64,000 nucleotides of DNA from Gammaproteobacteria bacterium (GCA_030833185.1 JAURHQ010000002.1:4870-68869); one strand, 5' to 3'. Numbered from the stretch's first letter, positions 6,618-55,558 are shown. The notes: generated by a model from the sequence alone, not told the origin. Translations and numbers: made by a program.

Positions 6618-8072
<1,455 letters not shown>

Positions 8073-19751: not shown

Positions 19752-19773
19752 GTCCCGCGAAGAGAAGGCCTAT

Positions 19774-19806: not shown

Positions 19807-19826
19807 CCGTAACGCCGAGAACAAGA

Positions 19827-38321: not shown

Positions 38322-39134
38322 ATGTTGCGAGTTCCCGCCATCTGCCGCGCCATCGTCCTGCTTGGACTCTGGGGCGCGGCGCTCACCGCGGCCGCAGCGA
38401 GCCAGTCGCCGGTCGATGTCTGGCAAACCTTCCTCAAGCCCAAATATTTTGCCGCGACCCCGATCATCGAAGACCGCACGGTCATCGAACTCAGCACGCC
38501 TTATCGCGCCGAGGATGCCGCCTTCACGCCGGTGACCATCAAGGCGCAGTTTCCGCAGAGCGCGGCGCGCTATATCCAAAAGATTTACGTCATCGTCGAT
38601 AACAATCCCGAGCCGCTCGCCGGTGTGTTTACCCTGACGCCCGAGATGGGACGCGCGGATCTCGCGCTACGCCTGCGCATTAATGAATACACCAACGTGC
38701 GCGCGCTGGCGGTGCTCAACACGGGTGAAACGCATATGGCGTTGAACTACGTGAAAGCGCAGGGCGGCTGCTCGGCCCCGCTAGGGTCGGACTTCAAGGC
38801 GGCGCTGGGGCGCATGGGCAGCATGAACTTTCGCACGCTGGGGGAGGTGAATGCCGACCACACCCTGGTCGGCCAGCTGATGCTCAGCCATCCCAACGTG
38901 ACCGGCATGCAGAAAGATCAGAAGACCCAGCTCATTCGCCCTGCGCACTACGTCAAGTCGCTGAAGATTTATCTGGATGAGCGCCTGATTATGGAGGCGG
39001 AAACAGGGATTGCGATCAGCGAAGACCCGAGCTTCCGCTTCTTTTTCAAACCCTCGACGACGGGTGAACTGAAAGCCGACGTCGTCGACTCCAAGGGTCA
39101 GGCCTGGTCGCATAAATTCAAGGTTGGCAGTTGA
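38322..39134 (+). CDS. secreted fused SoxY-SoxZ-like sulfur-carrier-type protein
   Basis: Signal peptide 'LLGLWGAALTAAAAS'. The SoxY-like half ends in an internal 'KAQGGCSAP' (GGC carrier-cysteine motif). The SoxZ-like half has 'LSHPNVTGMQKD...IRPAHYVKSLKIYLD..LIMEAETGIAISEDPSFRFFFK'. Strong RBS AGGAGG upstream. Confidence 0.7.
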   Translation: MLRVPAICRAIVLLGLWGAALTAAAASQSPVDVWQTFLKPKYFAATPIIEDRTVIELSTPYRAEDAAFTPVTIKAQFPQSAARYIQKIYVIVDNNPEPLAGVFTLTPEMGRADLALRLRINEYTNVRALAVLNTGETHMALNYVKAQGGCSAPLGSDFKAALGRMGSMNFRTLGEVNADHTLVGQLMLSHPNVTGMQKDQKTQLIRPAHYVKSLKIYLDERLIMEAETGIAISEDPSFRFFFKPSTTGELKADVVDSKGQAWSHKFKVGS

Positions 39135-39926: not shown

Positions 39927-39964
39927 CCGTTGTCATACCGCTTTGCAGCATTTATGCTCGAGCC

Positions 39965-41410
39965 ATGATGGAGATCAATTGGCGCGAGTACGTTAAGGGA
40001 ACGGCCTGCGACGAACTGGTCGCGGGCGGTGGCCGGGCGCGACCTGGCGCTGGTTCCTTGCTCAAGCATTTGCGGGAACTGGGCGGTGAAGAACTGCTCC
40101 ACCGCAAGAAGGCCGCCGAGCAGGCCATACGCGCCATGGGCATCACCTTCACCGTCTACAGCGAAGGCGCCAATCTCGATCGCCAATGGCCCTACGACAT
40201 CATCCCGCGCATCCTGCGGGCGACCGAATGGGCCCGGATCGAAACGGGTCTGCGCCAGCGACTCGCGGCGCTCAATCACTTCATCGACGACGTCTATAAC
40301 GAACAGCGCATTTTTCGCGACGGCGTGGTGCCGCGCGATGTCGTGATGGATGCCGGCAACTTCCGCGAGCAATGCGCGGGCATGCGGCCCTTGCACGGCG
40401 TGTGGGCGCATATCTGCGGCAGCGATCTGGTGCGCGACAAGGACGGCAAGGTCTACGTGCTGGAAGACAACCTGCGGGTGCCGTCCGGCGTGTCCTACAT
40501 GCTGGAGAACCGGCGCATCACCAAGCGGGTGTTTCCGGAACTCTTTGAGGCCTGCAAGATCGGGCCGATCGATGAATACCCCGCGCAGTTGTTCGACACC
40601 CTGGCCTCACTCTCGCCGCGCGCGCAGGACGACCCGGAAATCGTGGTGCTGACGCCCGGCATCTTTAACTCAGCCTATTTCGAGCACGCTTTTCTGGCCC
40701 AGCAGATGGGCGCAGAACTGGTGGAAGGCGGCGACCTCGTCATCGGGGCGGACGACTGCGTGTACATGCGGACCATTCGCGGGCTGGCGCGGGTCGACGT
40801 CATCTATCGCCGGATTGACGATGCATTCCTCGACCCCGAAGCCTTCCGCCCGGACTCCATGTTGGGGGTGGCGGGACTGATGCGGGCCTGGCGTAAAGGG
40901 CGCGTCGCGATTGCCAACGCGCCGGGTACGGGTGTGGCCGACGACAAGGTCGTCTACGCCTACGTGCCGGCGATGATCAAATACTATCTGGGTGAGGATG
41001 CCATCCTGCCCAATGTGCCGACCTACCTCTGCTTCGACCCCAAGCAGCGCCAGCACGTGCTGGCCAATCTCGACAAGCTGGTGGTGAAGCCGGCCAACGA
41101 GTCCGGCGGTTACGGGATCATGATTGGGCCGGCGGCGAGTCGCGCCACGCGGGACCAATTTGCGAAGCTGATTCAGGCCAATCCGCGCAATTACGTCGCG
41201 CAGCCGACGCTCTCGCTGTCGACCACGCCTACCATCCTGGGGCGCGAACTTGCCCCCTGCCACATCGACCTGCGGCCGTTCAGCCTGCAGGGCGCGCGGC
41301 ACTATACGACTGCCGGCGGCCTGACCCGGGTCGCCATGCGACGCGGCTCGCTGGTGGTCAACTCCTCGCAAGGCGGGGGCAGCAAGGACACCTGGATCGT
41401 GGCGGACTGA
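39965..41410 (+). CDS. circularly permuted type-2 ATP-grasp protein (COG2308 amidoligase)
   Basis: 481 aa with 'GITFTVYSEG...WPYDIIPRIL' and 'YVLEDNLRVPSGVSYMLENR', immediately followed (3 nt) by an alpha-E gene. Confidence 0.88.
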   Translation: MMEINWREYVKGTACDELVAGGGRARPGAGSLLKHLRELGGEELLHRKKAAEQAIRAMGITFTVYSEGANLDRQWPYDIIPRILRATEWARIETGLRQRLAALNHFIDDVYNEQRIFRDGVVPRDVVMDAGNFREQCAGMRPLHGVWAHICGSDLVRDKDGKVYVLEDNLRVPSGVSYMLENRRITKRVFPELFEACKIGPIDEYPAQLFDTLASLSPRAQDDPEIVVLTPGIFNSAYFEHAFLAQQMGAELVEGGDLVIGADDCVYMRTIRGLARVDVIYRRIDDAFLDPEAFRPDSMLGVAGLMRAWRKGRVAIANAPGTGVADDKVVYAYVPAMIKYYLGEDAILPNVPTYLCFDPKQRQHVLANLDKLVVKPANESGGYGIMIGPAASRATRDQFAKLIQANPRNYVAQPTLSLSTTPTILGRELAPCHIDLRPFSLQGARHYTTAGGLTRVAMRRGSLVVNSSQGGGSKDTWIVAD

Positions 41411-41413
41411 CCC

Positions 41414-42349
41414 ATGCTTTCACGCGTCGCCGAACGTCTTTACTGGCTGGGCCGCTACATCGAGCGAGCGGAGAACACCGCGCGCCTCGTGATGGTCAAC
41501 AACAACCTGCTGCTCGATCTGCCCAGCTCGGCCGGCGTGCTGTGGGAATCGCTGCTCGAACTGCTGGCCGCTGCAGAGAGTTTCCGCGAGCGTCACAGCA
41601 GCGTCTCGGAACGTCAGGTCATTCGCTGGGTGATGGCTGACGAGCACAACGCGGGTTCGTTGGTGTCGTCGCTGCGCGCAGCGCGTGAGAACGCCCGCAC
41701 CGTGCGCGAGGTCATTCCGTCAGAGTCCTGGGAACTGATTAACGACCTCTACTGGTCGGCGCAGGACACCGCTGAAAGCGGCATTGCCCGCAAGAGCCGG
41801 CAGGCCTATCTCGACGGCATCGTGCTCAAGAGCCAGCAGTTCGCCGGCATGCTCCACAACACCATGAGCCACCGGGAACCCTTCCAGTTCCTGATGCTCG
41901 GGGCGACGTTGGAGCGGGCAGACATGACCTCCCGCATCGTCGACGTGGGCGCCGGCCTCGCGCGGCGCGCGCTGGGCAGCAACGCGGTCGCAGCGCACGA
42001 GAACATTCTGTGGATGAACGTGCTGCTCTCGCTCAGCGCCTATCAGATGTACCGACAGCAGGTGCGTGAGCGCGTGAACGGCCCGGACGTGGTGCGCTTC
42101 CTGCTCCACGACAACAGCTTCCCGCATGCGATCAGCTGGTGCGTCGACGAACTGGAGCACGCGCTGGGCAAATTGCCGCACAACCGGCTGGCCCTGCAGG
42201 CTAACCGCCGCGTACTGCAGCATCTGGTGCGCGCTAACCCGGAGGTTTTGCTGGGCAGCGGTCTGCACGAGTTCATCGACGAGCTACAGGTCGAACTGGG
42301 CAACCTGCACGAGAAAGTCGTCAATACCTGGTTCGCCTTGCGCGACTAG
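41414..42349 (+). CDS. alpha-E domain protein (COG2307/DUF403)
   Basis: Characteristic start 'MLSRVAERLYWLGRYIERAENTARL', all-helical, about 311 aa. Confidence 0.85.
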   Translation: MLSRVAERLYWLGRYIERAENTARLVMVNNNLLLDLPSSAGVLWESLLELLAAAESFRERHSSVSERQVIRWVMADEHNAGSLVSSLRAARENARTVREVIPSESWELINDLYWSAQDTAESGIARKSRQAYLDGIVLKSQQFAGMLHNTMSHREPFQFLMLGATLERADMTSRIVDVGAGLARRALGSNAVAAHENILWMNVLLSLSAYQMYRQQVRERVNGPDVVRFLLHDNSFPHAISWCVDELEHALGKLPHNRLALQANRRVLQHLVRANPEVLLGSGLHEFIDELQVELGNLHEKVVNTWFALRD

Positions 42350-42361
42350 GCGCTTCCTTGG

Positions 42362-43090
42362 TCAGCGCGCCCAGTCGATTTCCGGCAGGGTGGTGAAGGC
42401 CTCTATCAACTTCTGGTTCCAGCCTTTGGCCAGCGCTCGCAGGTAGGCGTCGTCGTCGCCAAATTTGAGGTAGCGTCCGGCGGTCAGGGTGTCGGTTTCA
42501 TAGACCCGGAGTTCGATCGGCGGGCCAACGCTCAGGTTACTGCGCAGGGTGGAATCCATCGACACGATCGCGCACTTGGCGGCGTCATCAATGCTGGTCC
42601 CGGCGGTGATGACCCGGTCGAGAATCGGCTTGCCGTATTTGCTCTCGCCGATTTGCAGGAAGGGATGATCCCGCGAGGTCGTGATGTGATTGCCTTCGGG
42701 GTAAATCAGGAAAATGCCGGCAGGCTCGCCGCGCAGTTGGCCACCGAGAATGAAGGTCACCTTGGGATCGAAGCTGCTCAGCCCGCCTTCACGAAACTTG
42801 GCCTGCCGTTTCACGCTGACTTCGCCGATGTAGTCGGCTGCCTCGGCCAGCGAATTCACCGACAGCAGGTTGGGGTCGGCCTGCTGGCGAATGTCGTGCT
42901 CCAGTTCGTGCACCACGGCTTGCGTGGTGGCCAGATTGCCGGCCGACAACAGCACAAAAAGACGCTCACCGTCGCGGCCGAACACATGCATCTTGCTGTA
43001 GGTGCTGACCTGATCGATGCCCGCATTGGTGCGGGAGTCCGAACAGAACACCAGCCCCTTATCGAGCGCGATCCCAATGCAATAGGTCAT
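42362..43090 (-). CDS. proteasome-type Ntn peptidase, Anbu (ancestral beta subunit, COG3484)
   Basis: Starts 'MTYCIGI', so Thr directly follows the initiator Met as in Thr1 Ntn hydrolases. About 242 aa, 'LIYPEGN', 'IGESKYGKPILDR'. Sits in an ATP-grasp/alpha-E/transglutaminase neighbourhood. Confidence 0.88.
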   Translation of the reverse strand: MTYCIGIALDKGLVFCSDSRTNAGIDQVSTYSKMHVFGRDGERLFVLLSAGNLATTQAVVHELEHDIRQQADPNLLSVNSLAEAADYIGEVSVKRQAKFREGGLSSFDPKVTFILGGQLRGEPAGIFLIYPEGNHITTSRDHPFLQIGESKYGKPILDRVITAGTSIDDAAKCAIVSMDSTLRSNLSVGPPIELRVYETDTLTAGRYLKFGDDDAYLRALAKGWNQKLIEAFTTLPEIDWAR

Positions 43091-43096
43091 GGGGAA

Positions 43097-43963
43097 TCAG
43101 CCGGGCTTGGCGTCCAGACGGGTTTTGCGCAGCACCCCGCCGGCGGCGGCGTGCGGCGTGCGCAGCAGGCTGTCGGCGGCTTTTTCAAGCTCGCGGGCTT
43201 CATCTGCCAGTCGCGCTGCCGCGCGCATCATTTCGTGGCCGGCTGCAACCATGGTGACGTAGCGCGCCGGGTCTTGTTCCTTGAAGCAGCCGTCCGCCGT
43301 CACGGCAGACACGGTCTCCGCCAGACTCAGCGCTGCATAGGCCTTGGCGGCCGCATACGGGTTGCCGAAGCCGCCGGCAGTGACCGCCTTGTCGGCGGTG
43401 ACGGTCAGGGTCGGATAGCTGGGCGGGGTGCCGGCGCGAAGGGCGTCGATCAGCCCGTCGAGCGTGGTCTGCACCAGTCGCAGCACGCCGCTCGCCGCCA
43501 GCACCTTGATCACGTCGGCGTTGAAGAGGCTCATTTCGGTCGGGTCGAGAAATTCGCGTCGCGCGCCAATCATGGAATCCGCCGGGAAAATCATGAAGCC
43601 CTGTCCTTCGGGAACGTTCATGACCTGTTTGCCCTCTTCGTTTTTCTTGAAGAAGGCTTTTTTCGACGGGCCGTCAGACAGCACGACCAGCGGAATCCCG
43701 GCGGCGGCGATGGCTTTGCGGGCAGCCGCAGGGCCCGGCAGGGCGGCGTTGGGGCTAACCAGAATGACCAACTGCGGTTGCCACGCCAGCAGCCCTTCGG
43801 TCGGACCCTGACAGGATTGCGGATCGAGCTTGGCGCCGCAGGTCCAGGCGCGGGTGTCGATGTCTTCGCGGTCCGCGCGCTCATCGAGCAGCAGGTCGAG
43901 CAGCGGCGCTGCGCCGATGCAGCCCAGTTTGAGCACGCCGAGTTTGAATGCGCCGTGGGACAT
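43097..43963 (-). CDS. homologue of archaeal F420-dependent methylenetetrahydromethanopterin dehydrogenase (Mtd family)
   Basis: 288 aa. 'KLGCIGAAPLLDLLLDERADRED', 'MIGARREFLDPTEMSLFNADVIKVLAASGVLRLVQ' and 'GCFKEQDPARYVTMVAAGHEMMRAAARLADEARELEKAADSLLRTPH' match my recollection of methanogen Mtd sequences over the full length. GGAG RBS, and 6 nt upstream of Anbu. Confidence 0.7.
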   Translation of the reverse strand: MSHGAFKLGVLKLGCIGAAPLLDLLLDERADREDIDTRAWTCGAKLDPQSCQGPTEGLLAWQPQLVILVSPNAALPGPAAARKAIAAAGIPLVVLSDGPSKKAFFKKNEEGKQVMNVPEGQGFMIFPADSMIGARREFLDPTEMSLFNADVIKVLAASGVLRLVQTTLDGLIDALRAGTPPSYPTLTVTADKAVTAGGFGNPYAAAKAYAALSLAETVSAVTADGCFKEQDPARYVTMVAAGHEMMRAAARLADEARELEKAADSLLRTPHAAAGGVLRKTRLDAKPG

Positions 43964-44047
43964 AGCGGAATCTCCGGTTTAAGGGGGGCGCGAGCGATTT
44001 TGCAGCGCGCCAAGGTAGCCGCTTTATCGCAATCGACCGCCTTGGCG

Positions 44048-44929
44048 TCAAGCCTCGCGGCCGGGCAGCAGACGCTCCACCTGTACGCTGACGCGCAACT
44101 GCTGCGGACCGCGCGCGAGGATCACGCCGCGTAGCGGCGTCACGTCACCAAAGTCGCGTCCCCAGGCCAGCGTGATGAACTCGTCGTCGGCCAACTTGCC
44201 GTTGGTCGGATCACAGCCGACCCAGCCACAGCCGGGCACGAATACCGCGACCCAGGCGTGTGAGGCGCCTGCCCCTTGATTGGCACCGGCCTCACCCAGC
44301 GGTGCTACATAGCCGCTCATGTAACAGGCCGCGAGGCCCAGCCCCCGCAGCCCGCTCAGCATGAAGTGGGTGAAGTCCTGACACACGCCCCGGCCGCTGC
44401 GGAGCAGGTCGTCCACCGAGGCCGAGACCGAAGTGGCCTGCGGGTCGTAGATAAAACTTTGCTGGATTCGTCGGCTCAGGTGCAGCAGGCCCTCAATCAC
44501 CGGGCGGCCCGGACGCAGGGATTCGCGCGCAAAGGCGGTGGCTTCTGGCAGCAGGGGCACGCAGGGTGAGGCCAGGGTGAACTGCTGGACCTCGAGCGTG
44601 GCGTTTGCCGACGCGGGTCGCGCTTGCGACCAGTCCAGCCGGCTCGACCATTCAGCCGCCCGCGGCTGCACGCTGAGTTCAGATTCCGCGACCACCACCA
44701 GCCGCTGGTGCGCCGCGCCCATCGCAAAGCGCACGATGGGGTTGCCGAAATAGTCGAAGTCTTCGGCGTACTCCACAGGATTTGGGTCAATCGCCAGCCG
44801 ATGGTGCGCGACGCGCTGCCAGGGCGTCGTCCGCGGTGAGAGGTGGGCCAGATGCCGCGCGCTCGCGATAGCCTCCGAATACTGATACTCGGTGACGTGC
44901 ACCACCCGATAGCGGACCGACGCACTCAT
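44048..44929 (-). CDS. transglutaminase-family cysteine protease/ligase (COG1305)
   Basis: Bact_transglu_N-like start 'YRVVHVTEYQYS'. Cys-His-Asp triad contexts 'GRGVCQDFTHF', 'ASHAWVAVF', 'GCDPTNG'. The start overlaps the upstream stop (ATGA). Confidence 0.9.
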   Translation of the reverse strand: MSASVRYRVVHVTEYQYSEAIASARHLAHLSPRTTPWQRVAHHRLAIDPNPVEYAEDFDYFGNPIVRFAMGAAHQRLVVVAESELSVQPRAAEWSSRLDWSQARPASANATLEVQQFTLASPCVPLLPEATAFARESLRPGRPVIEGLLHLSRRIQQSFIYDPQATSVSASVDDLLRSGRGVCQDFTHFMLSGLRGLGLAACYMSGYVAPLGEAGANQGAGASHAWVAVFVPGCGWVGCDPTNGKLADDEFITLAWGRDFGDVTPLRGVILARGPQQLRVSVQVERLLPGREA

Positions 44930-47364
44930 CGGGCGACCAGGGCCTGGGCGCTGCTATTGAGATGGTTGAAGACATCCTGAGTCAGAGTGTCGCTGAACTG
45001 GCAAGCGTATTGATGCAGCTTGCGCAGTTGCGGGGCGAGGGCCGAGGAGAGCCCGGGCGCCAGCGCCAGCGCCTCTGTTTCGTCGATGAGCGTGCTCCAG
45101 GGCGCCGCGTAGTCGGCGTTCAGCAGGTGCGCGGTCTTGCGAAGATAGTCGCGAATCCCCCGCAGCTGGAACATCAGGGCGCGCGGGTTTTCCTCGTCAT
45201 ACAGCAGCAATTCGAGCACCGAGGGCCACGCCGGCTGGCTGGTGTAGCGCGCGCGGTAGGTGACGCTGGAGTCCGCCAGTTCCAACAACCAGCCCAGGCT
45301 TTCGCCCGGCTTGTCCAACGCCAGCATCAGCCAGGTCGCGCTGGTCGACAGCCGTTCGAGGCGCCGGCCGATTGAGAGAAAGCGCCAGCCCGAGTCGCGG
45401 GTCATGCCGTCCAGCGCGAAGCCGGACAGCGACATCAGCGCGGAGACCGCGCGGTCGATCCAGAGCAGGGTTTCGGTCAGCGAAACGCGTCGACCCAGCA
45501 CCGGGTCCTGCACCAGTCGATTGACCGCCTGCCAGTTATCGAGCGACATGCGCTCGCGCAGGCTGAAGGCCACCTGATTGAGCTGCCGGAGCTGGCTGGG
45601 CAAGCCAAACGCATCGGTATCCTGGGTGGCCGCATCAGACCAGGCGAGTGCTGGCTGCTCGCGGTCGATCGGCAGCCCCATGGCCGCGGCCACGCGGGCC
45701 ACTGCGGCCTCGGTCGCTTCGCTATCGATCGCCGCATTCAGGCCAATGCGGAGCAGGCGCGCCAACTGGTCGCAACGCTCGGCGTAGCGTCCGTACCAGA
45801 AGAGGTTCTCCACCACGCGCGAAGCGATGATCACCTGCCGCCGCACCTGTGGCGTGGCCGTGATGCGGGGCGTGGCGGGCAGGGGCGCGGCCACGGTGGC
45901 CGCTGCCGGGCGCGATAGCACCCAGGTGTCCTTGGCGCTGCCACCGCGCTGCATCGACACCACGTAGGGGTCTGCTTCGGCAGCCACCCGCGTCAGGCCG
46001 CCGGGCATCCCCTGATAGCCCTGCGGGGTGGCGACCGCGAACACGCGCAGGCCGATCGGGCGCGTGCCGAGCACATCCGGTCGTCGGGGTGTCAGGGTGG
46101 GCGCCGGTGACACACGGACCAGTTCCTGCGCGACGTAGCGCCCCGGATCGGCGCGAACCTGCTCGGCAAAAGCGGCGCGTTCCGTGCGCGACAGTTCCGG
46201 ACCAAACACGGGCTCGAAGCCGCGCACGGGGTCGGTTGGCTTGAACACCAGTTCGTCGATACGGGCGAGCGCGGAGGCTTGCGCAGCGGGTTCGCCACAC
46301 CACCAGGTGGCGATCGACGGCAACCGCAGTTCCTCGCCCCGCAGGCGCTGGCAGAGTGCCGGGAGATAGCCGAGCAGGGCGCCAGACTCGAGCACGCCCG
46401 ACCCCAGCGCATTGGCAACCAGCACCGTGCCGCGTCGCGCGCATTCCATCAGTCCGGGCACGCCGAGCGCGGAATCTGCCCGCAGTTCCAGCGGATCGCA
46501 GAAGCTGTCGTCCTGTCGTCGCAGCACCGTGTGGACGCGCTGCAGGCCTTCGATGGTTTTGAGCCACAGGCAGCCGTCCCGCACCACCAGATCGCCGCCC
46601 TCGACCAGGGGGAACCCCATGTAGCGGGCGAGAAAGCCGTGTTCGAAATAGGTTTCGTTGTACGGACCTGGCGTCAGGACCACGGCCAGCGGTTGGCCGT
46701 CGCCGGCCGGGGCATAGTGCAGCAGTGATTCGCGCAGGGTGTTGAAGTGCTGACTGATTCGCGCAACGTGCAGCTCGCGGAACAGTTCGGGAAACAGCCG
46801 CGCCACCAGCAGACGGTTTTCCAGCGCGTAACCGGCGCCCGACGGCGCCTGCGTCCGGTCGGCCAGTACCCACCAGCGACCGTCTGGTGAGCGGGCCAGA
46901 TCCGCCGCGTAGCTATGCAGGAAGATGCCGCCCGGCGGGCGCGTGCCGCAGGCGGCGCGCAGAAAACCGCTGTGGCCAAGGATCAACCCCGGCGGCAGCT
47001 GACCTTCGTGCAGCAGCCGCGCGGCGCCGTACAAGTCGGCCAGCACGCTGTTCAAGAGCTCGGCGCGCTGCATGATCCCGGCCGCAATCCCGTCCCATTC
47101 GTCGGCCGGCAGGATGAGGGGCAGCACGTCGAGATCCCAGGGGCGGTCAAGGCCCTGCGGGTCGGCGTAGACGTTGTAGGTCACGCCGCTGTCGCGAATG
47201 GCGCGCTCGACCAGTTCGATACGGTCAGCCAGCGCCGTGCCGGTGGTGCCCTGCAGCTCGGCGTGAAAGCGGGCCCAGTGCGCGCGCGGCGTGCCGGGTT
47301 CGGCCAGCAGTTCGTCGTAACGCGCGGCGGTAGGTGCCGGATTGGCGAGAAGATCAGGCTGCAT
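44926..47364 (-). CDS. fused circularly permuted ATP-grasp plus alpha-E protein
   Basis: 812 aa. The N-terminal half is homologous to 39965..41410 ('GVTYNVYADPQG..RPWDLDVLPLIL', 'WVLADRTQAPSGAGYALENR'). The C-terminal half has the alpha-E signature 'SRVVENLFWYGRYAERCDQLARLL'. Confidence 0.88.
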   Translation of the reverse strand: MQPDLLANPAPTAARYDELLAEPGTPRAHWARFHAELQGTTGTALADRIELVERAIRDSGVTYNVYADPQGLDRPWDLDVLPLILPADEWDGIAAGIMQRAELLNSVLADLYGAARLLHEGQLPPGLILGHSGFLRAACGTRPPGGIFLHSYAADLARSPDGRWWVLADRTQAPSGAGYALENRLLVARLFPELFRELHVARISQHFNTLRESLLHYAPAGDGQPLAVVLTPGPYNETYFEHGFLARYMGFPLVEGGDLVVRDGCLWLKTIEGLQRVHTVLRRQDDSFCDPLELRADSALGVPGLMECARRGTVLVANALGSGVLESGALLGYLPALCQRLRGEELRLPSIATWWCGEPAAQASALARIDELVFKPTDPVRGFEPVFGPELSRTERAAFAEQVRADPGRYVAQELVRVSPAPTLTPRRPDVLGTRPIGLRVFAVATPQGYQGMPGGLTRVAAEADPYVVSMQRGGSAKDTWVLSRPAAATVAAPLPATPRITATPQVRRQVIIASRVVENLFWYGRYAERCDQLARLLRIGLNAAIDSEATEAAVARVAAAMGLPIDREQPALAWSDAATQDTDAFGLPSQLRQLNQVAFSLRERMSLDNWQAVNRLVQDPVLGRRVSLTETLLWIDRAVSALMSLSGFALDGMTRDSGWRFLSIGRRLERLSTSATWLMLALDKPGESLGWLLELADSSVTYRARYTSQPAWPSVLELLLYDEENPRALMFQLRGIRDYLRKTAHLLNADYAAPWSTLIDETEALALAPGLSSALAPQLRKLHQYACQFSDTLTQDVFNHLNSSAQALVAR

Positions 47365-47396
47365 GGGCCAACACGCTGGGCGGGACAGGCCCGACT

Positions 47397-50300
47397 CTAG
47401 CCACGCGGACGACGCAGATCCAGCGTGAACGGATAGTAGGCGCTGCGCTGTACCGGCGCGGCGTCCACGCTGCCCGGGGTGTGTCCGCGCCGAAAGAAGC
47501 GGGCGAGGCGTCGCGCTTCTGCTTCAAACGCATTGACCGGAAAGCTGGTGTAGTTGCGACCGCCGGGATGTGCCACGTGGTACTGGCAGCCGCCCAGCGA
47601 GCGCGATTGCCAGGCGTCTACCAGATCGAAAGTCAGCGGCGCGTGCACGCCGATGGTCGGCTGCAGACACGACGGCGGCTGCCAGGCGCGATAGCGCACG
47701 CCGGCCACGAACTCGCCGTTGGTCCCCGTGGGGTGCAAGGGCAGGGCGTAGCCGTTGCAGGTCAGCACGTGTCGCTCGTCGACCAGCCCGCGCACTTTCA
47801 CCTGAAGTCGCTCCAGCGAAGAATCCACATAGCGCGCCGTACCGCCGGGACCGCCTTCTTCGCCCATCACATGCCAGGGTTCGAGCGCGCTGCGCAGTTC
47901 GACCGCCACATCGCGCGCGGCGAAATCGCCGATGCGTGGGAAACGAAACTCCAGATGCGGCGCGAACCAGGCCGGATCGAAGCCATAACCGGCCTCGCGC
48001 AGTTCCTGCAGCACATCCTGCAAATCGGTTTCCACGAAGTGCGGCAGCATGAACCGGTCGTGTAGTTCGGTGCCCCAGCGCTTGAGCGTGCCGGGCCGGT
48101 AGGGCTGTGCCCAGAAGCGCGCCACCAGCGCGCGCATCAGCAGTTGCTGAGCGAGGCTCATCCGCGCATGCGGCGGCATTTCAAACGCACGGAGCTCGAG
48201 CAGGCCGAGGCGGCCAGTGACGCTTTCCGGCGCAAAAAGCTTGTCGATGCAGAACTCGGCACGATGCGTATTGCCGGTGACGTCGATCAGCAGATTGCGG
48301 AACAGGCGATCGACCAGCCACGGCGGCGGGGGATTGCCGCTAGCTTCCAGTCGCGCCATTTCGCGCAGGGCCACTTCGAGTTCGTAGACCGACTCATGGC
48401 GCGCCTCGTCCACCCGCGGCGCCTGACTGGTGGGCCCGATAAACAGCCCGCTGAAGAGATAGGACAGCGCCGGGTGGTTGTGCCAGTAGGCGAGCATGCT
48501 GGCCAACAGGTCGGGTCGCCGCAAAAAAGGCGAGTCCTTGGGCGTGGCACCACCCAGCACGAAATGATTCCCGCCGCCGGTGCCGGTATGCCGGCCGTCG
48601 AGCATGAACTTCTCGCTGCCGAGGCGCGTTTGATGGGCGGCTTCGTAGAGGAACTCGGTTTGTTCGACCAGCGCGTCCCAGGATTCGACCGGATGCACGT
48701 TGACTTCCAGCACCCCGGGGTCTGGCGTTACCCGCAGCAGGCGCAGCCGGGCGTCCCGCGGCGGCTCATAGCCTTCGATCACGACCGGCAGGTCCTGCGC
48801 TTCGGCGGTGGCTTCAATTACACCCAGCAGTTCCAGATAGTCTTCCAGACGTGCCAGTGGCGGCATGAAAAGATGCAGGCGGCCGTCGCGGGCTTCGGCG
48901 CAAAGCGCGGTGCGCACAAGGCCGGTGGCGGACTGGTGCAGCGTGGGCGCGAGGCCGTCGGCGGTGTTCAGGCCAGACGGCCGCTGCACCTGCGGCGCAC
49001 GGCGTCCGCTAGCCTGTTCGCGGTAATCCCGCCACGCGGGCAGCGGTTGCTGCGGCAGGCTCGGGTCGCGCATGAATAAAGGATCGCGATCGCCGGGCGC
49101 GCTCCACGGGAGCGAATCCAGCGGTAGGCGCAATCCCAGCGGGGAATCGCCGGGGATGAGGTAGCAGCGCTCGTCGCGCAAGAACCACGAGCCGCTGCGC
49201 CAGCCGCCGGCATCGCGGGAGATCGGCAAGACATGGCCAACGACCCGCGCCAGCCCTTGATCAAAGATGCGCCGCAGCCGTGCCCGTTCGATGGGATCAT
49301 CCAGTTCTGAATGCAGCGGGTCGACGTTGGACGGCAGTCGACGCTCGCGCCAGAGGTAGTACCAGACGTCCTCAAAGGCCGGGAAAACCTGCTCCGATGC
49401 CAGTCCCAGCCGGGCCGCCACTTCGCCGAGGAAGCGCGCGCCCTGCGCGCTGTGCGCGCCATGGTCTGCGCCTTCGGCGGCCAGCAGGCGGGGGTTCTGC
49501 CACATTGGCTGCTGGTCTGCGCGCCAGTACAAATTGAGCGACCAGCGCGGCAACTGCTCGCCCGGATACCACTTGCCCTTGCCGAGATGGACCAGCCCCT
49601 CGGGGGCGTAGCGCGCGCGGAGCTTGGCCAGCAGTTCGCCGCCCAGACCGCGCTTGCTCGGGCCCATGGCTTCCGTGTTCCACTCCGGCGCGTCCTGATC
49701 GGTCACCGAGACAAAAGTCGGTTCGCCGCCCTGCGTCAGACGCACGTCGCCCGCTTCTAGTGCCTGATCTACCGTTTGACCCAAGTTCTGCAGCGCCGCC
49801 CACTGCGCGGCGCTGTAAGGTTTGGTGACACGCGGCGCTTCATAGATGCGCTCGATTCGCATGCTGTGCGAGAACTCGACTTCGCATGCGTCGACGCTGC
49901 CGGAAATCGGCGCGGCCGACTGCGGGTCGGGCGAGCAGGCGAGCGGAATATGCCCTTCGCCGGCCAGCAGCCCGGAAGTCGGATCCAGTCCAATCCAGCC
50001 TGCGCCCGGCAAATACACTTCGCACCAGGCGTGAAGATCGGTGAAATCGGTCGCCGGCCCGCTTGGGCCTTCCAGCGGTTTGACGTCCGGGACCAGCTGC
50101 AGCAGGTAGCCAGACACAAAACGCGCGGCGAGCCCGAGGTGACGGCACATTTGCACCAACAGCCAGCTTGAATCCCGGCAGGAGCCAGCCGCGCGGGTTA
50201 GCGTTTCTTCCGGTGTCTGCACGCCGGGCTCAAGCCGGATCAAATAGCTGATTTCAGTTTGCAGGCGCTGATTTAACGCCACGATGAAATCGACCGTGGG

Positions 50301-50717
50301 GATAGGCGTGCGCTCGATGCTGTCGAGCAGGGCCTGCAAGCGCGGTCCGGCAGGCAGCGTAATGAGATATGGCGCGAGTTCCTTCAGGGCGGTCGCATCG
50401 TAGGCGAAGGGGAACTTTTCGGCGCTCGGCTCCAGAAAGAAATCGAAGGGATTGAGCACCGCCATTTCGCAGATCAGGTCCACCTCCACGCGCAACTCGC
50501 GGGTGCGTTCGGGAAAGACGACGCGCGCGAGGTAGTTGGCCTGCGGGTCCTGCTGCCAGTGAATGAAATGCGGTTCCGGGGCAATTTTCAGCGAGTAGCT
50601 GAGGATCCTCGTGCGGCAATGAGGCGCCGGGCGCAGGCGCAAAATCTGGGGCCCCAGATGGACCAGCCGGTCGTAGTCGTAGCGGGAAACATGATTCAAC
50701 GCGACGTGAATGGACAC
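47397..50717 (-). CDS. large transglutaminase-family protein (N-terminal transglutaminase core plus DUF2126-type C-terminal region)
   Basis: 1106 aa. 'HVSRYDYD', triad contexts 'AGSCRDSSWLL', 'DLHAWCEVYLPG', 'GLDPTSG'. The long C-terminal part is typical of the DUF2126 family. Confidence 0.88.
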   Translation of the reverse strand: MSIHVALNHVSRYDYDRLVHLGPQILRLRPAPHCRTRILSYSLKIAPEPHFIHWQQDPQANYLARVVFPERTRELRVEVDLICEMAVLNPFDFFLEPSAEKFPFAYDATALKELAPYLITLPAGPRLQALLDSIERTPIPTVDFIVALNQRLQTEISYLIRLEPGVQTPEETLTRAAGSCRDSSWLLVQMCRHLGLAARFVSGYLLQLVPDVKPLEGPSGPATDFTDLHAWCEVYLPGAGWIGLDPTSGLLAGEGHIPLACSPDPQSAAPISGSVDACEVEFSHSMRIERIYEAPRVTKPYSAAQWAALQNLGQTVDQALEAGDVRLTQGGEPTFVSVTDQDAPEWNTEAMGPSKRGLGGELLAKLRARYAPEGLVHLGKGKWYPGEQLPRWSLNLYWRADQQPMWQNPRLLAAEGADHGAHSAQGARFLGEVAARLGLASEQVFPAFEDVWYYLWRERRLPSNVDPLHSELDDPIERARLRRIFDQGLARVVGHVLPISRDAGGWRSGSWFLRDERCYLIPGDSPLGLRLPLDSLPWSAPGDRDPLFMRDPSLPQQPLPAWRDYREQASGRRAPQVQRPSGLNTADGLAPTLHQSATGLVRTALCAEARDGRLHLFMPPLARLEDYLELLGVIEATAEAQDLPVVIEGYEPPRDARLRLLRVTPDPGVLEVNVHPVESWDALVEQTEFLYEAAHQTRLGSEKFMLDGRHTGTGGGNHFVLGGATPKDSPFLRRPDLLASMLAYWHNHPALSYLFSGLFIGPTSQAPRVDEARHESVYELEVALREMARLEASGNPPPPWLVDRLFRNLLIDVTGNTHRAEFCIDKLFAPESVTGRLGLLELRAFEMPPHARMSLAQQLLMRALVARFWAQPYRPGTLKRWGTELHDRFMLPHFVETDLQDVLQELREAGYGFDPAWFAPHLEFRFPRIGDFAARDVAVELRSALEPWHVMGEEGGPGGTARYVDSSLERLQVKVRGLVDERHVLTCNGYALPLHPTGTNGEFVAGVRYRAWQPPSCLQPTIGVHAPLTFDLVDAWQSRSLGGCQYHVAHPGGRNYTSFPVNAFEAEARRLARFFRRGHTPGSVDAAPVQRSAYYPFTLDLRRPRG

Positions 50718-50899
50718 GGGCAGGCTCCGTCCGGTGAACGCAAAGTGGTGAGCTTACCCAGCCATTGTGCGATGCGCAAAGACGCAAAATGACCGCGCTT
50801 GAGGGCCGCGCCGAACGGCACCAGCCCGGGGCGCCTGAACCCCGCTGAACGAGGAACAGGCGCCGTCGGAGTGCGCGGGCGCGAGGCCCGCCGCCGGGC

Positions 50900-52324
50900 T
50901 TAGAGCTTCACGTACTCGTAGGCCGAGGGCTGATTGTTGATGCCGCGATCCGGCGGCGCCAGCCAGCCGGCAATTTTGCCCGGCTCGACCACGCGCTGCA
51001 TGAGGCTGCGGACGTGGGCCCGGTCAGCCTCGGTCGGCAGCCAAGTGCTCAGGCTCTGGGCGTAAGCCTCGGCGCTGATCCGGCGGCCGGTAGGATCGGT
51101 AGGCACATTCGCCCACGCGCCGATGCCGCGATTGAAGCGGGTGGAGGGCAGGGTGAGTTCGATCTCATGGCCCGCGCGCTGAATCATCATGTTCCAGCGC
51201 TTCAGCCCCATGCCGCAGTCTTTCACGTAGGCGACGCGCGCCACTTCGTTCATGGCGTTGCGCATAGGGATGGATTCGGTGCCCTGACCGTCGTCGCCGA
51301 CCGGTACGGCCAGCTCGAACATGTCGTTCAGCGCAAGATGGTCGCTGTAGAGGCTCTCGTCCGGACGTCCCTTGATGCCGTTTGCGAAGCTCGACGCCGC
51401 GTTCGACGAGACCTCGGAGCCGAAAAGATCCAGCGACGAGGTGAACCAGAAATTGATGTAGCGCTGAATCAGCGGCAGGTCCATGGCGCCCGCCTGACGG
51501 ATGACCGCCGGATCGTCGGAACCGGTTTCCTTCATGACTTCCAAGGTGCGGCGAATGACCCGACCGAGTCCCGTTTCACCGACGAACATGTGATGCGCCT
51601 CTTCGGTCAGCATGAAGCGGCAGGTTCGGGCAAGCGGGTCAAAGGCCGATTCGGCCAGACTTTTCAGCTGATATTTGCCATCGCGATCGGTGAAGTAGGT
51701 GAAGCAGAAGAAGGACAGCCAGTCGTCGATCGGTTCGTTGAAAGTGCCGAGAATCCGGGGCTTGTCGACGTCGCCCGAGTGGCGCGCCAGCAGTTCTTCT
51801 GCCTCTTCGCGGCCGTCGCGACCGAAGTAGGCGTGGAGCAGGTACACCATTGCCCACAGGTGACGGCCTTCTTCTACGTTGACCTGAAACAAATTGCGCA
51901 AGTCGTACAGCGACGGGCAGACCCGACCCAGCAGGTGCTGCTGTTCGACCGAGGCGGGTTCGGTGTCCCCTTGGGTGACGATGAGGCGCCGGAACTGCGA
52001 GCGGAATTCGCCCGGCACCTGTTGCCATACGGGCTGGCCCATGAAATCGCCGAACCCGATCTTGCGCTCCGGATCGGCGTCGGCCAGAAAGATGCCCCAG
52101 CGATAGTCGGGCATCTTCACGTAGCCGTAGCTGGCCCAGCCTTCAGCATCCACCCCGACTGCCGTGCGGAGATAGACGTCGTTCTGCGCAAACTCCTTGG
52201 GGCCCATTTCGTCCCACCAGTTGAGGAAGCGCGGCTGCCAGTGTTCGAGCGCGCGCTGTAGCGTGCGGTCGTTCGACAGGTTCACGTTGTTGGGAATGCG
52301 GTCGGAAAGATTGACGCTGGACAT
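50900..52324 (-). CDS. boxB: benzoyl-CoA 2,3-epoxidase, diiron oxygenase subunit
   Basis: 474 aa. 'RIPNNVNLSNDRTLQRALEHWQPRFLNWW', 'TQGDTEPASVEQQ', 'EEGRHLW', 'LTEEAHHMF' (diiron carboxylate EXXH motifs). Confidence 0.93.
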   Translation of the reverse strand: MSSVNLSDRIPNNVNLSNDRTLQRALEHWQPRFLNWWDEMGPKEFAQNDVYLRTAVGVDAEGWASYGYVKMPDYRWGIFLADADPERKIGFGDFMGQPVWQQVPGEFRSQFRRLIVTQGDTEPASVEQQHLLGRVCPSLYDLRNLFQVNVEEGRHLWAMVYLLHAYFGRDGREEAEELLARHSGDVDKPRILGTFNEPIDDWLSFFCFTYFTDRDGKYQLKSLAESAFDPLARTCRFMLTEEAHHMFVGETGLGRVIRRTLEVMKETGSDDPAVIRQAGAMDLPLIQRYINFWFTSSLDLFGSEVSSNAASSFANGIKGRPDESLYSDHLALNDMFELAVPVGDDGQGTESIPMRNAMNEVARVAYVKDCGMGLKRWNMMIQRAGHEIELTLPSTRFNRGIGAWANVPTDPTGRRISAEAYAQSLSTWLPTEADRAHVRSLMQRVVEPGKIAGWLAPPDRGINNQPSAYEYVKL

Positions 52325-52390
52325 GCGGGCTTCCTCGCGAAGGGTTAGGTCACTCAGGGCTTTGAAATGAAATCATTCCGGGGCTGCGGC

Positions 52391-54058
52391 TTATACGCGC
52401 TCCCAGTTGAATTGGGCTTTGCTGCCGCTGCCAAACACCTTCAGCGCGCCCTGCTCGCCAACCGCGTTAGGGCGGATGAAGATCCAGTTCTGCCAGGCGG
52501 ATAGCCGGCCAAAAATGCGGGTTTCCATGGTTTCCTGACCGGGAAAACGTAAGGATGCTTCCATGCCGGTGAGGCTGTCGGGCGAGAAGCTGGTCCGCTC
52601 CTCGAAAAACACGCGCACCTCGTCGTCCCAGTCGATGTCGTCGGGCGCGTAGGTCACCAGACCCAGCGCGATCGCGCGGTCGGCGTCCAGCGCTTCGCCA
52701 ACGACCGCCTGAATGTCCGCCAGCGGGGTGGCATCGCCGCAGAAGCGGGTCAGGAGTCGGGTCTGATGGTTCACCATCGGAAGCGGCCCGAAGTTCATCG
52801 CCGACAGCGTGAGGGTCGGCGCGCTCGCAGGTTCGTCCGGCAGACTCAGCATGAAACTGCGGTCCGCTGCAAAGGCGAGTTCGGCCAAGGTGCCGGCAAA
52901 GCAGGCGTCGCGATCAATCAGCGCGAACATCGTGCGGGAAGAAACGTCCAGTCGGGCGAAGGTGCGGCGGAGCAGCCCCAGCGTTTCCTTCACCAGCCAG
53001 TCGCCGGCGTGCGCCAGCAGGCTCGCATCGGCGGCCAGCACGTGTGCCGGATTGCCGCTGGTGCGCAAGAGCCACGCGCCGACTTCCAGGTCGTTAGTCC
53101 GCAGCATCAGGATCGCGTCATCAAGTTCGCGCGCCAGCGCGAGCGGCCACCAGTCTGCGCCCTGGGCGTGAATGTCGGCGAGTGACGCCGGCGGCGCCTC
53201 GTCTGGTGCGCGCAGGGTGAGCGTGGCGGTGCGCGCCGCGCGGTTCAAGGCCACATCGACGTAGCGGTAGTGCAGGCCGGATTCGTCGGCGCTTCTGGTG
53301 AGTGGCGTTAGCGCAATCCCGACGCCAGCGCCGGGGCGCGTGCTCTGCGCCGCCAGCGCGGCCACCCGAGCGGCAACGGCATCCGCGAACTGGGCAGGCT
53401 TGGCGATGTGATCCACCAGCCCCCACTGTCGCGCGCGCTCGGCGCGTACGCCCTCGGTCGTGGTAGAGAAGACGTCCGCCAAATCGCGGCGCACGCGGCG
53501 CTTGTCGGTTACACGGGTCAGGCCGCCAGTGCCGGGCAGCACGCCGAGCAAGGGCACTTCGGGCAGGCTGACGGTGGAAGATCGATCGTCGACCATCAGG
53601 ATTTCGTCGCAGGCAAGCGCAAGCTCGTATCCGCCGCCGGCCACCGTGCCGTTTACCGCCGCCAGAAACTTGAGGCCATCGGCGCTCGAATCTTCAATGC
53701 CGTTGCGGGTTTCGTTGGTGAATTTGCAGAAATTTACTTTCCACGCGTGGCTGGATTTGCCCAGCATGTAGATGTTGGCGCCCGAGCAGAACATGCGCTC
53801 CTTCGCGCTGGTCATGACCACGACCTTCACTTCCGGATGTTCGAAGCGCACGCGTTGAAGCGCGTCGTACAGCTCGATATCTACGCCGAGGTCGTAGGAA
53901 TTGAGTTTCAGCTTGTAGCCGGGCGCAATGCCGCTGTCTTCGTTGACATCCATCGACAGGGTTGCGACCTCGCCGTCGTAGCGCACTTTCCAGTGCTGGT
54001 ATTGCGCCGGGTCACGGTCATAGGTCACGTGGAGCGTCTGATTAGCGGTGTCGGACAT
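52391..54058 (-). CDS. boxC: 2,3-epoxybenzoyl-CoA dihydrolase (ring-cleaving, crotonase superfamily)
   Basis: About 555 aa, 'YQHWKVRYDGEVATLSMDV', 'FCSGANIYML', tandem enoyl-CoA hydratase-like halves. Start trimmed to ATG 54058 (MSDTANQ). Confidence 0.9.
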   Translation of the reverse strand: MSDTANQTLHVTYDRDPAQYQHWKVRYDGEVATLSMDVNEDSGIAPGYKLKLNSYDLGVDIELYDALQRVRFEHPEVKVVVMTSAKERMFCSGANIYMLGKSSHAWKVNFCKFTNETRNGIEDSSADGLKFLAAVNGTVAGGGYELALACDEILMVDDRSSTVSLPEVPLLGVLPGTGGLTRVTDKRRVRRDLADVFSTTTEGVRAERARQWGLVDHIAKPAQFADAVAARVAALAAQSTRPGAGVGIALTPLTRSADESGLHYRYVDVALNRAARTATLTLRAPDEAPPASLADIHAQGADWWPLALARELDDAILMLRTNDLEVGAWLLRTSGNPAHVLAADASLLAHAGDWLVKETLGLLRRTFARLDVSSRTMFALIDRDACFAGTLAELAFAADRSFMLSLPDEPASAPTLTLSAMNFGPLPMVNHQTRLLTRFCGDATPLADIQAVVGEALDADRAIALGLVTYAPDDIDWDDEVRVFFEERTSFSPDSLTGMEASLRFPGQETMETRIFGRLSAWQNWIFIRPNAVGEQGALKVFGSGSKAQFNWERV

Positions 54059-54074
54059 TGCAAAGCCTCGGAAA

Positions 54075-54962: not shown

Positions 54963-54966
54963 GAAT

Positions 54967-55000
54967 TATATTGCGAGTGCCTCTGTGAGCCGGCAATATA
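54967..55000. promoter_or_regulatory. AT-rich inverted repeat TATATTGC-N18-GCAATATA in the boxR/flavodoxin divergent region (candidate operator and -10 elements)
   Basis: Perfect 8-bp arms at 54967-54974 and 54993-55000, in an 82-bp intergenic region that is conspicuously AT-rich for this sequence. A TGCA lies just downstream (55002-55005). Confidence 0.35.
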
Positions 55001-55044
55001 GTGCAACTTTGAACCACCCCACAACCCGGGCATAAAGGCTTTCC

Positions 55045-55527
55045 ATGACACGCGCGCTCACGATTCTTGTAGGCACCACGACCGGCAACGCGCAGTACTG
55101 CGCCGAGGAGTCTGCGTTCCGCGCGCAGGCGCTGGAAATTGCGGCCGAGGTCAAACCCATGGACGGGCTGGACGCCAGCGTGTTCGTGCCAGGGCAGACG
55201 TATCTGTTGTGTATCTCGACCTATGGCCAAGGTGATGTGCCCGATAACGCGCGCGGCGTCTACGAGACCCTGATTCGCGACAAGCCGGCGCTGAGCGGCG
55301 TTCGCTACGGCATCGTCTCGCTCGGTGACAGCTCGCACGCCCAGACGTTCTGCTTTGCGGGGCGGCGCTTCGACAACGCTTTGAGCAAGTTAGGCGCGGT
55401 GCGAGTGGGCGAGATTCTCAATCACGACGCGTCCTCCGGTACGATGCCGGAAGAAGCCACCGCCGAATGGGCGATGGCCTGGTTGGCGCAGGCCTTTGAG
55501 GGTGAGTCGACAGCGCCCGCGCAGTAA
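55045..55527 (+). CDS. flavodoxin-domain (FMN-binding) protein
   Basis: 'LTILVGTTTGNAQYCAEE', 'LLCISTYGQGDVPDN', 'YGIVSLGDSSH'. MioC / sulfite-reductase-alpha FMN-domain-like, 160 aa. Confidence 0.8.
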   Translation: MTRALTILVGTTTGNAQYCAEESAFRAQALEIAAEVKPMDGLDASVFVPGQTYLLCISTYGQGDVPDNARGVYETLIRDKPALSGVRYGIVSLGDSSHAQTFCFAGRRFDNALSKLGAVRVGEILNHDASSGTMPEEATAEWAMAWLAQAFEGESTAPAQ

Positions 55528-55558
55528 TCATCTTGCGAGTTCGAAAGCGCAGCGATTC

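Follow-up and report, generated by a model that had tools for sequence, protein, structure and literature searches.

A convergent Anbu locus in a gammaproteobacterium, probably a mosaic of three separately promoted units

Background

Why do two sets of amidoligase genes, a proteasome-type hydrolase and an archaeal-type dehydrogenase lie side by side on a bacterial chromosome? The question is raised by positions 39965-50717 of a 64,000-nucleotide stretch of DNA from a Gammaproteobacteria bacterium (GCA_030833185.1, JAURHQ010000002.1:4870-68869), a stretch that we call the window. The hydrolase is Anbu, and the Anbu system has had, to our knowledge, no known substrate or function since 2008. Two genes, a split ATP-grasp ligase and its alpha-E partner, run towards Anbu on the plus strand; on the minus strand, a triad formed of a large transglutaminase with a DUF2126 domain, a fused ATP-grasp/alpha-E ligase and a small transglutaminase runs into the dehydrogenase, Mtd, and then Anbu. 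A preliminary description of the window saw in this a rewired locus, in which Anbu had been captured by the operon of the triad. We favour another reading, with a probability of roughly 0.78: three units, each with a promoter of its own, make up the locus as a mosaic, namely the Anbu core, an Mtd-Anbu bicistron, and the triad.

The point of comparison is the canonical Anbu operon, which in Yersinia bercovieri, Pseudomonas and Klebsiella strings together a COG2308 ATP-grasp, a COG2307 alpha-E protein, a COG1305 transglutaminase and Anbu (PMC3235984, PMC6376114; loci L173 and L176-L178 of our comparison). A role in peptide ligation and as a peptidase has been proposed for this operon (PMC6376114, PMC5666114, PMC3235984), and the ATP-grasp of the Y. 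bercovieri operon releases phosphate from ATP (PMC6376114).

Results

The convergent core

All seven open reading frames (ORFs) of the locus were recovered where the preliminary description had placed them, and the identities that it gave them were confirmed by the ORF list derived from the window sequence, by Pfam and NCBIfam profile searches and, for Anbu, by structure matches. On the plus strand, a circularly permuted ATP-grasp amidoligase in its split form, of the Anbu-operon type (39965-41410; Pfam CP_ATPgrasp_2, E 1e-166; two in-frame ATGs, at 39965 and 39968), is followed by its partner, an Alpha-E domain protein (41414-42349; Pfam Alpha-E, E 4e-85). They are met from the minus strand by Anbu, a proteasome-type N-terminal nucleophile (Ntn) hydrolase of 242 amino acids, at 42362-43090, which is the second gene of the Mtd-Anbu pair. 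The Anbu ORF has no Pfam match at the threshold used; in a search of PDB it matches the solved Anbu structures 5nyw, 5lox, 5nyj and 5nyf, with E-values from 1e-61 to 1e-66. Its sequence starts MTYCIG, its homologues carry the name proteasome-type protease, and Thr1, Asp17 and Lys32 are all present, which makes it a member of the same family as the Anbu of the canonical operon.

The preliminary description opposed this layout to the canonical operon, in which all genes run in the same direction, and the opposition is sound: the published operons are co-directional (PMC6376114, PMC3235984), and operons of that kind, with a transglutaminase, turned up in records of Klebsiella, Ralstonia, Acinetobacter and Burkholderia. 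The window shares with them an adjacent split ATP-grasp (51-53% identity) and alpha-E (30-32%), but its pair converges on Anbu, no dedicated COG1305 transglutaminase stands between alpha-E and Anbu, and Mtd lies directly upstream of Anbu.

A different picture emerges when the window is compared with its own relatives. Our Anbu-anchored sample contains 92 loci, 80 of them from metagenomes and the others from two rounds of look-ups (7 and 5), onto which all proteins of the window were mapped by tblastn; the layout can be evaluated in the 66 that extend at least 2.5 kb downstream of Anbu. The ATP-grasp and alpha-E genes lie in this order on the opposite strand, converging on Anbu, in 56 of these 66 loci, and are co-directional with Anbu in only two (L148 and L150). 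Convergence is found in 12 of the 15 loci whose Anbu is at least 70% identical to that of the window, every one within 600 nt, and in 44 of the 51 loci at 50-70% identity: 22 of them within 600 nt, 14 at about 1-1.3 kb, and the remainder at longer distances, with the triad or other genes intervening. The convergent layout also occurs in Gilvimarinus (L089), in a Chromatiales metagenome-assembled genome (L088) and in a complete genome of 5.85 Mb (L090), and alpha-E is 3' of ATP-grasp in all related loci. Since most loci of the clade are convergent, the geometry is, to judge by these counts, the ordinary layout of this Anbu clade, and no rearrangement peculiar to the window. The term rewired must therefore be given up; that the layout might turn out to be a common one had been foreseen in the preliminary description, and in part it did.

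To which of the two ligase sets, then, does each gene belong? The split ATP-grasp of the window is 51-53% identical to the ATP-grasps of canonical Anbu operons and 63-71% identical to those of the convergent clade; the ATP-grasp domain of the fused ligase is 36-38% identical to the canonical ones, and the two ATP-grasp domains of the window are 40% identical to each other. The small transglutaminase is 41-42% identical to the triad transglutaminases of distant loci (L105, L116, L132, L140) and 26-29% identical to those of canonical Anbu operons. It is found only where the fused gene is found, so that a locus without the triad is also a locus without the small transglutaminase, and most members of the clade have none near Anbu. 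These identities, together with the co-presence of the transglutaminase and the fused gene, assign the split ATP-grasp/alpha-E pair to Anbu as its own partner, and the small transglutaminase to the triad. Two earlier proposals lose their support with this assignment: the split pair, said to have lost Anbu, is of the Anbu type and adjoins it, and the transglutaminase of the triad, which travels with the fused gene rather than with Anbu, is probably not shared by Anbu.

The nearest counterparts of the core are the convergent clusters of marine and freshwater Gammaproteobacteria (among them Gilvimarinus, the Chromatiales genome, and L102-L170), whose ATP-grasp and Anbu are respectively 63-71% and 54-62% identical to those of the window. 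Unlike the window, none of them has Mtd, and 14 loci of this wider clade have a Zn-ribbon/Peptidase_Mx gene that follows alpha-E and converges on Anbu, for instance at 8686-9735 in L089; the others are L101, L104, L111, L129, L135, L154, L158, L160, L162, L163, L166, L168 and probably L128 or L134. This gene fills the gap between alpha-E and Anbu in most of the loci with a distance of 1-1.3 kb, and takes the slot that is held by the transglutaminase in canonical operons. The window has no Peptidase_Mx gene.

The pairing of Mtd with Anbu

The gene that precedes Anbu on the minus strand, at 43097-43963, encodes an archaeal-type Mtd of 288 amino acids, of the family of F420-dependent methylene-tetrahydromethanopterin (H4MPT) dehydrogenases (PF01993 MTD, E 1e-104, aligned over 1-273 of 274). 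It scores 338.1 bits against the NF002162 equivalog, for a cut-off of 297, and matches the Methanopyrus kandleri structure 1qv9 with an E-value of 1e-67 in the PDB search; with the archaeal enzyme (PDB 1qv9/3iqe) the match is full-length, at about 50% identity. Archaeal Mtds have 67 near-invariant columns, with a conservation of at least 93% among 69 sequences; 63 of these columns are retained by 90% or more of 15 sequences from Gammaproteobacteria. The median identity of gammaproteobacterial to archaeal Mtds is 51%, compared with 55% for the archaeal Mtds among themselves.

More than 2,400 homologues were retrieved, and the best 120 are nearly all 288 amino acids long and gammaproteobacterial where named. 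In species-representative genomes, the identity to the Mtd of the window is 65-82% in Gammaproteobacteria, 58-63% in Thorarchaeota, and 45-57% in many archaeal lineages. A neighbour-joining tree groups the gammaproteobacterial Mtds in a monophyletic clade, sister to the Thorarchaeota sequences, and within that clade all Anbu-linked Mtds form a single subclade. On this tree, therefore, the adjacency of Mtd and Anbu has a single origin. It is also sharply bounded: Mtd is upstream of Anbu in all 10 loci with an Anbu identity of at least 70%, and in none of the 22 loci at 50-70%.

Within these bounds the two genes are tightly packed. The start of Anbu comes 6 nt after the stop of Mtd in the window, with no evident Shine-Dalgarno sequence, and in relatives the two genes either overlap by 4 nt or stand 2-6 nt apart; translational coupling of Anbu to Mtd is therefore likely. 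In the most basal Anbu-linked relative, L087, two genes, one of the HIT family and one of the Ub-Mut7C/ThiS-like + Mut7-C type, are found between Mtd and Anbu (8709-9882), and a pair formed of a PTPS and a radical-SAM gene is divergent from Mtd.

The setting of this Mtd differs from that of its archaeal counterparts in that the host is bacterial, no F420 or H4MPT genes lie nearby, and the gene is predicted to share a transcript with a proteasome-type hydrolase. In a review of F420 enzymes from 2021, Mtd is assigned to archaea only (PMC8498797). In other uncultured Gammaproteobacteria, Mtd stands alone (8001-8867 or 10001-10867 in L008-L013, L171 and L172), in unrelated and non-conserved contexts. 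F420 or H4MPT genes were found neither in the 64-kb window nor in the flanks of these stand-alone genes, and the flanks of all the other loci examined, as distinct from whole genomes, contain none either. Most likely, the Mtd of the window is a functional dehydrogenase, and history rather than mechanism accounts for its co-expression with Anbu.

The triad

Upstream of Mtd on the minus strand, the triad begins with a large transglutaminase carrying a DUF2126 domain, a putative amidoligase (47397-50717; DUF2126 at 1324 bits, with Bact_transglu_N and Transglut_core), continues with the fused circularly permuted ATP-grasp and Alpha-E protein (44926-47364; CP_ATPgrasp_2 E 1.5e-150, Alpha-E E 1e-52), and ends with the small transglutaminase-fold protein (44048-44929; Bact_transglu_N E 8e-23, Transglut_core E 5e-16). 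The catalytic residues of the small transglutaminase are kept, with its Cys in GVCQDF, His in SHAW and Asp in CDPT, as are those of the N-terminal transglutaminase domain of the DUF2126 protein, in GSCRDS, LHAW and LDPT. The DUF2126 gene has a GTG start at 50717 and a GGAG 7 nt 5' of it, both conserved in relatives. From the triad through to Anbu, the genes are separated by 32 nt, a 4-nt overlap, 84 nt and 6 nt, the overlap being the ATGA between the fused gene and the small transglutaminase that had been noticed earlier and is indeed present in the sequence.

The same three domain architectures, in the same order and with the same tight spacing, are found in clusters of L105, L108, L116 and L132, and with distant triads the transglutaminase is 41-42% and the DUF2126 protein 56-58% identical. 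In those four clusters, in contrast to the window, where the triad is on the strand of Mtd and Anbu and runs into them, the triad lies between alpha-E and Anbu, on the strand opposite to Anbu. The Rv2566-Rv2569c region of Mycobacterium tuberculosis is presumably another cluster of a DUF2126, a fused ligase and a transglutaminase gene. A literature search for DUF2126 together with transglutaminase found no papers.

Did the triad capture Anbu? The full arrangement of the window is found in close relatives (L001-3 and L091-95, with an Anbu identity of 80-100%). Mtd and Anbu persist when the triad is partial or absent. Locus L007 has DUF2126 alone of the triad, before Mtd; L086 goes directly from boxB to Mtd and Anbu, with the split pair and without the triad; L004, L005 and L006 do the same with neither triad nor split pair; and in L087, which has no triad, two other genes follow Mtd, and Anbu and the split pair come after them. 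In the window itself, the triad sits between boxB and a conserved promoter-like motif of Mtd. By this comparison the triad is a present-or-absent neighbour block and not the captor of Anbu, and the idea of capture is made unlikely by the loci that keep Mtd and Anbu without the triad (L004, L006, L086, L087) or with part of it (L007). Locus L007 (CAMATU010000050.1), a box-DUF2126-Mtd-Anbu locus whose proteins are 73-80% identical to those of the window, bears a Klebsiella pneumoniae label that is probably wrong.

The two modules nevertheless keep company more widely than in this lineage. In 7 of 22 distant loci and in 6 of 10 close ones, DUF2126 or the full triad is no more than 10 kb away from Anbu, in at least four arrangements: the triad co-directional into Mtd-Anbu, as in the window; the triad between alpha-E and Anbu, in the four clusters mentioned above; DUF2126 directly after Anbu (L090, L119, L122, L125, L147); and DUF2126 divergent from ATP-grasp (L137, L138, L153, L157, L159, L161). 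This recurrence in several arrangements supports a functional association, and makes a link between the two amidoligase modules plausible. The cross-talk that the preliminary description imagined between them is thus a reasonable idea. It is not a new one, the modules and their association being already known. What is new is the arrangement, and the Mtd-Anbu bicistron. Permuted ATP-grasp, permuted glutamine-synthetase-like ligase, Ntn hydrolase and alpha-helical domain were reportedly joined in one predicted system by Iyer et al. in 2009. Valas and Bourne, for their part, noted that Anbu may lie outside the operon and still be predicted to share its regulon (PMC3235984).

Two loci with duplicated Anbu genes were met in the course of this comparison. 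In L175 (20259-36984 of NZ_CP005987.1, a megaplasmid of Acidithiobacillus caldus), an IS256 transposase stands between two copies of Anbu, and DUF2126, ATP-grasp and alpha-E are co-directional, in that order, near the Anbu copies and glnL/ntrC; this neighbourhood fits the reported nitrogen control of Anbu operons. In L147, two Anbu paralogues (10001-10714 and 19217-19930), 9 kb apart, are 55% and 46% identical to the Anbu of the window: DUF2126 comes after the first, and the second is convergent with an alpha-E gene.

Transcription units

A consensus scan for promoters and terminators returned counts at or below the expectation from shuffled sequence. It picked out a single promoter-like site, and none of the unit boundaries, including the one between the small transglutaminase and Mtd, showed a terminator. 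Alignment of related loci points to more. A sigma-70-like promoter of Mtd-Anbu is predicted on the minus strand at 44023-44051, with a TTGACG hexamer, a 17-nt spacer and TGc-GATAAA; it escaped the scan because the sixth base of its -10 hexamer is A, which the -10 rule of the scan does not admit. Its -35 hexamer contains the stop codon of the small transglutaminase (44050-44048). The exact motif TTGACG-N12-TTGCGATAA is found upstream of Mtd in 14 loci, from about eight distinct lineages, and its presence does not depend on what lies upstream, be it the transglutaminase, boxB or a divergent PTPS gene; elsewhere, the 84-nt spacer between transglutaminase and Mtd is poorly conserved. This promoter-like element, conserved in loci with and without the triad, speaks against a capture of Anbu by the triad. 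A promoter of their own, unrelated to the triad, is what the preliminary description had named as contrary to its reading, and the exact motif of the 14 loci is the comparative counterpart of such a promoter.

For the triad, an alignment of five loci that include L007 reveals a promoter-like element, TTGCGC-17-TAAGCT, upstream of DUF2126 (50751-50779, minus strand): CTTTGCGC and TAAGCTC are invariant or nearly so across the five, and the remaining spacer is variable. The preliminary description had proposed as a regulator site a tandem repeat, CGCAAAGA/CGCAAAAT, at 50775-50790, that is, 58-73 nt 5' of the GTG start. The repeat is where it was said to be; the function is doubtful, as only the start-proximal copy is conserved in relatives, where it coincides with the -35-like hexamer of the element just described, and an 8-nt repeat in two copies is by itself not beyond chance. 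The response of Anbu operons to nitrogen limitation in Pseudomonas putida led us to consider a sigma-54/NtrC site upstream of DUF2126; it was rejected, the spacing, judged by eye, not fitting a -24/-12 promoter. A conserved GCACCA...TGGTGC pair forms, again by eye, the base of GC-rich hairpins that follow boxB.

These hairpins are stem-loops directly after the boxB stop, predicted by RNA folding at 50823-50900 on the minus strand of the window and in three relatives (L001 2140-2230, L094 2197-2235, L095 2210-2240), with z between -2.0 and -3.1. They occupy the same place with a different sequence in each lineage, and have no U tract. They probably separate the transcript of the box genes from that of the triad, whether as terminators or as elements of the repetitive extragenic palindromic type.

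The one promoter-like site of the consensus scan is TTGTCA-17-TATGCT, upstream of the split ATP-grasp (39930-39958, plus strand). It ends 7-10 nt before the start codon, so that a leaderless or near-leaderless messenger is possible, and it is conserved in the window, L001, L094 and L095, and not in L086, L087 and L096.

At the other end of the split pair, the TAG stop of alpha-E ends at 42349 and the stop of Anbu occupies 42362-42364, which confirms the gap of 12 nt (42350-42361) between the convergent genes. It had been argued that such a gap leaves no room for a terminator. The argument needs qualifying, in that a hairpin with an 11-bp stem is predicted across the spacer by RNA folding (42343-42377, minus strand), built from the 3' coding ends of both genes. 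It has z = -2.25 on the Anbu-sense RNA and no U tract, and is weakly conserved, the covariation having been examined on five sequences; we regard it as a candidate terminator at most.

Discussion

In the mosaic that we favour, the first unit would be the split ATP-grasp and alpha-E pair of the plus strand, which converges on Anbu and has no transglutaminase of its own in this clade. The second would have arisen in one sublineage, with an archaeal-type Mtd directly 5' of Anbu and the pair under its own sigma-70-like promoter. The third would be the triad, present or absent from one locus to the next, with its own promoter-like element. Biochemically, the ATP-grasp and DUF2126 ligases would activate a carboxylate as an acyl-phosphate and form an amide or isopeptide bond on a peptide, a protein or a small molecule, and the transglutaminase-fold proteins, with their Cys-His-Asp residues, together with the Thr1 hydrolase Anbu, would cleave or remodel such bonds. 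The two paralogous ligase sets, 40% identical and recurring side by side, probably act on related substrates, and the Anbu system may serve protein or peptide turnover under nitrogen limitation.

Several points weigh against this reading. We know of no substrate for any Anbu-associated ligase. The evidence for the three promoters and for the boundary after boxB consists of resemblance to consensus and of conservation. The layout counts include near-duplicates, the metagenome loci not having been dereplicated. With no terminator between transglutaminase and Mtd, transcription of the triad may read through into Mtd and Anbu, perhaps in one long transcript. The neighbour-joining tree, built on a single protein, obliges the triad either to have been gained once and lost several times, or to have been gained several times. 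Finally, the biochemical mechanism is deduced at the level of families (PMC6376114, PMC5666114, PMC3235984), and purified Anbu was inactive on proteasome substrates, showing no peptidase activity (PMC6376114).

The possible read-through leads to the capture model, in which Anbu and Mtd belong to the triad operon and use its small transglutaminase, the whole forming a composite system with the split pair as an orphan. Five co-directional genes at the short distances given above, no terminator-like site between transglutaminase and Mtd, and a layout conserved in L001-3 and L091-95 speak for this model, and Valas and Bourne found no Anbu genome without a transglutaminase (PMC3235984). We nevertheless hold it to be unlikely, in view of a promoter motif of Mtd-Anbu that is conserved with and without the triad, of sister lineages in which the triad is absent or partial, of a split pair that is of the Anbu type and adjoins Anbu in 56 of 66 loci, and of the small transglutaminase that is wanting near Anbu in most clade members. 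One could also go to the other extreme, and suppose that triad, Mtd and Anbu core are functionally unrelated genes brought together by accident, the chromosome being variable at this place, between the rib-thiL and box clusters. Genes do come and go from thiL to boxB, SoxYZ, the triad and the split pair among them, and each unit has its own promoter-like element; but the 7 of 22 distant loci with DUF2126 or the triad no more than 10 kb from Anbu, in several arrangements, to which the Acidithiobacillus megaplasmid must be added, are far above the expectation for a single-copy gene, and we judge such an accident slightly less probable still than capture.

There remains a functional coupling of Mtd and Anbu, in which the Anbu system would act on a glutamyl-tailed pterin or deazaflavin cofactor, of the F420 or H4MPT kind, or Mtd would itself regulate Anbu or be its substrate. 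The idea has its appeal in the glutamyl tails, added by amide ligases, of F420 and of some H4MPT derivatives; moreover, the tight spacing, from a 4-nt overlap to a 6-nt gap and with no Shine-Dalgarno sequence, holds across Anbu identities of 73-100%, and the 63 of 67 near-invariant archaeal residues that Mtd keeps indicate an enzyme under selection. Set against this are the single origin of the adjacency, confined to one subclade, the two other genes that separate Mtd from Anbu in L087, the stand-alone Mtds in unrelated contexts elsewhere in Gammaproteobacteria, and the absence of F420 and H4MPT genes from the window and from every locus examined. We find it the least likely of these alternatives. 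In its boldest form, Mtd would have come from a donor related to Thorarchaeota and would serve aerobic Gammaproteobacteria as an F420-dependent or related methylene-pterin dehydrogenase, its coupling to Anbu reflecting a link to a glutamyl-tailed cofactor of one-carbon or redox metabolism; to this, too, we give very little credence. Were it true, the link between Mtd and Anbu would give the long-orphan Anbu system its first candidate class of substrates.

Under the mosaic reading, the locus itself is not a new system. What it contributes is a narrower list of the obligatory parts of the Anbu system: the conserved core, in a large gammaproteobacterial clade, is ATP-grasp, alpha-E and Anbu in convergent layout and without a transglutaminase, whose slot is taken in other loci by DUF2126, the triad or a Peptidase_Mx gene, and this argues against the transglutaminase being essential to Anbu. 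A by-product of more interest than the locus is the set of bona fide orthologues of Mtd that form a monophyletic clade within Gammaproteobacteria; were their hosts to make F420 and a methanopterin-like carrier, archaeal-type one-carbon redox chemistry would extend to a new bacterial group.

Chromosomal setting and neighbouring genes

No match to the PADLOC defence-system models was obtained among the seven proteins of the locus, which thus give no indication of an anti-phage role by that measure. An Rfam scan of the whole window has a tRNA at 57620-57690 as its sole match, with no riboswitch or leader near the locus.

The window is a piece of core chromosome, from an uncultured gammaproteobacterium of 62-70% GC, with purL, gyrA, pheA, tyrA, aroA, cmk, rpsA, pyrF and mfd; the flank also holds a class-I adenylate cyclase gene (cyaA) and the series glyA-nrdR-ribD-ribE-ribBA-ribH-nusB-thiL. 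A methylotroph island of H4MPT genes was considered as a setting and dropped, the window consisting of such ordinary genes and of box genes. The latter, a cluster for the aerobic benzoyl-CoA (box) pathway, lie on the other side of the locus, at 50900-57139: boxB (50900-52324), which has no Pfam match and is identified by TIGR03225 at 747 bits and by PDB 3per (E 3e-198), boxC (52391-54130; TIGR03222, 920 bits), a regulator of the BoxR/BzdR type with helix-turn-helix and shikimate-kinase-like parts (54075-54962), a flavodoxin (55045-55527) and a benzoate-CoA ligase (55496-57139). As the related loci indicate, the Anbu locus occupies a variable spot between thiL and boxB. The same locus is found on metagenome contig Ga0255096_1000007 (L091), with a protein identity of 97-100%.

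Before the split ATP-grasp lie an aldolase gene and, at 38322-39134, a fused SoxY-SoxZ protein that scores 243 bits against TIGR04557, the quinoprotein dehydrogenase-associated SoxYZ-like carrier; no quinoprotein dehydrogenase is found within the window, in spite of this carrier. The preliminary description associated both genes with the split pair. They behave as independent neighbours, gained and lost separately: the SoxYZ-like gene is patchy among close relatives, being absent from L001-3 and present in L004, L086 and L094, and L004 and L006 keep it, together with the HpcH-aldolase gene, though their ATP-grasp pair is gone.

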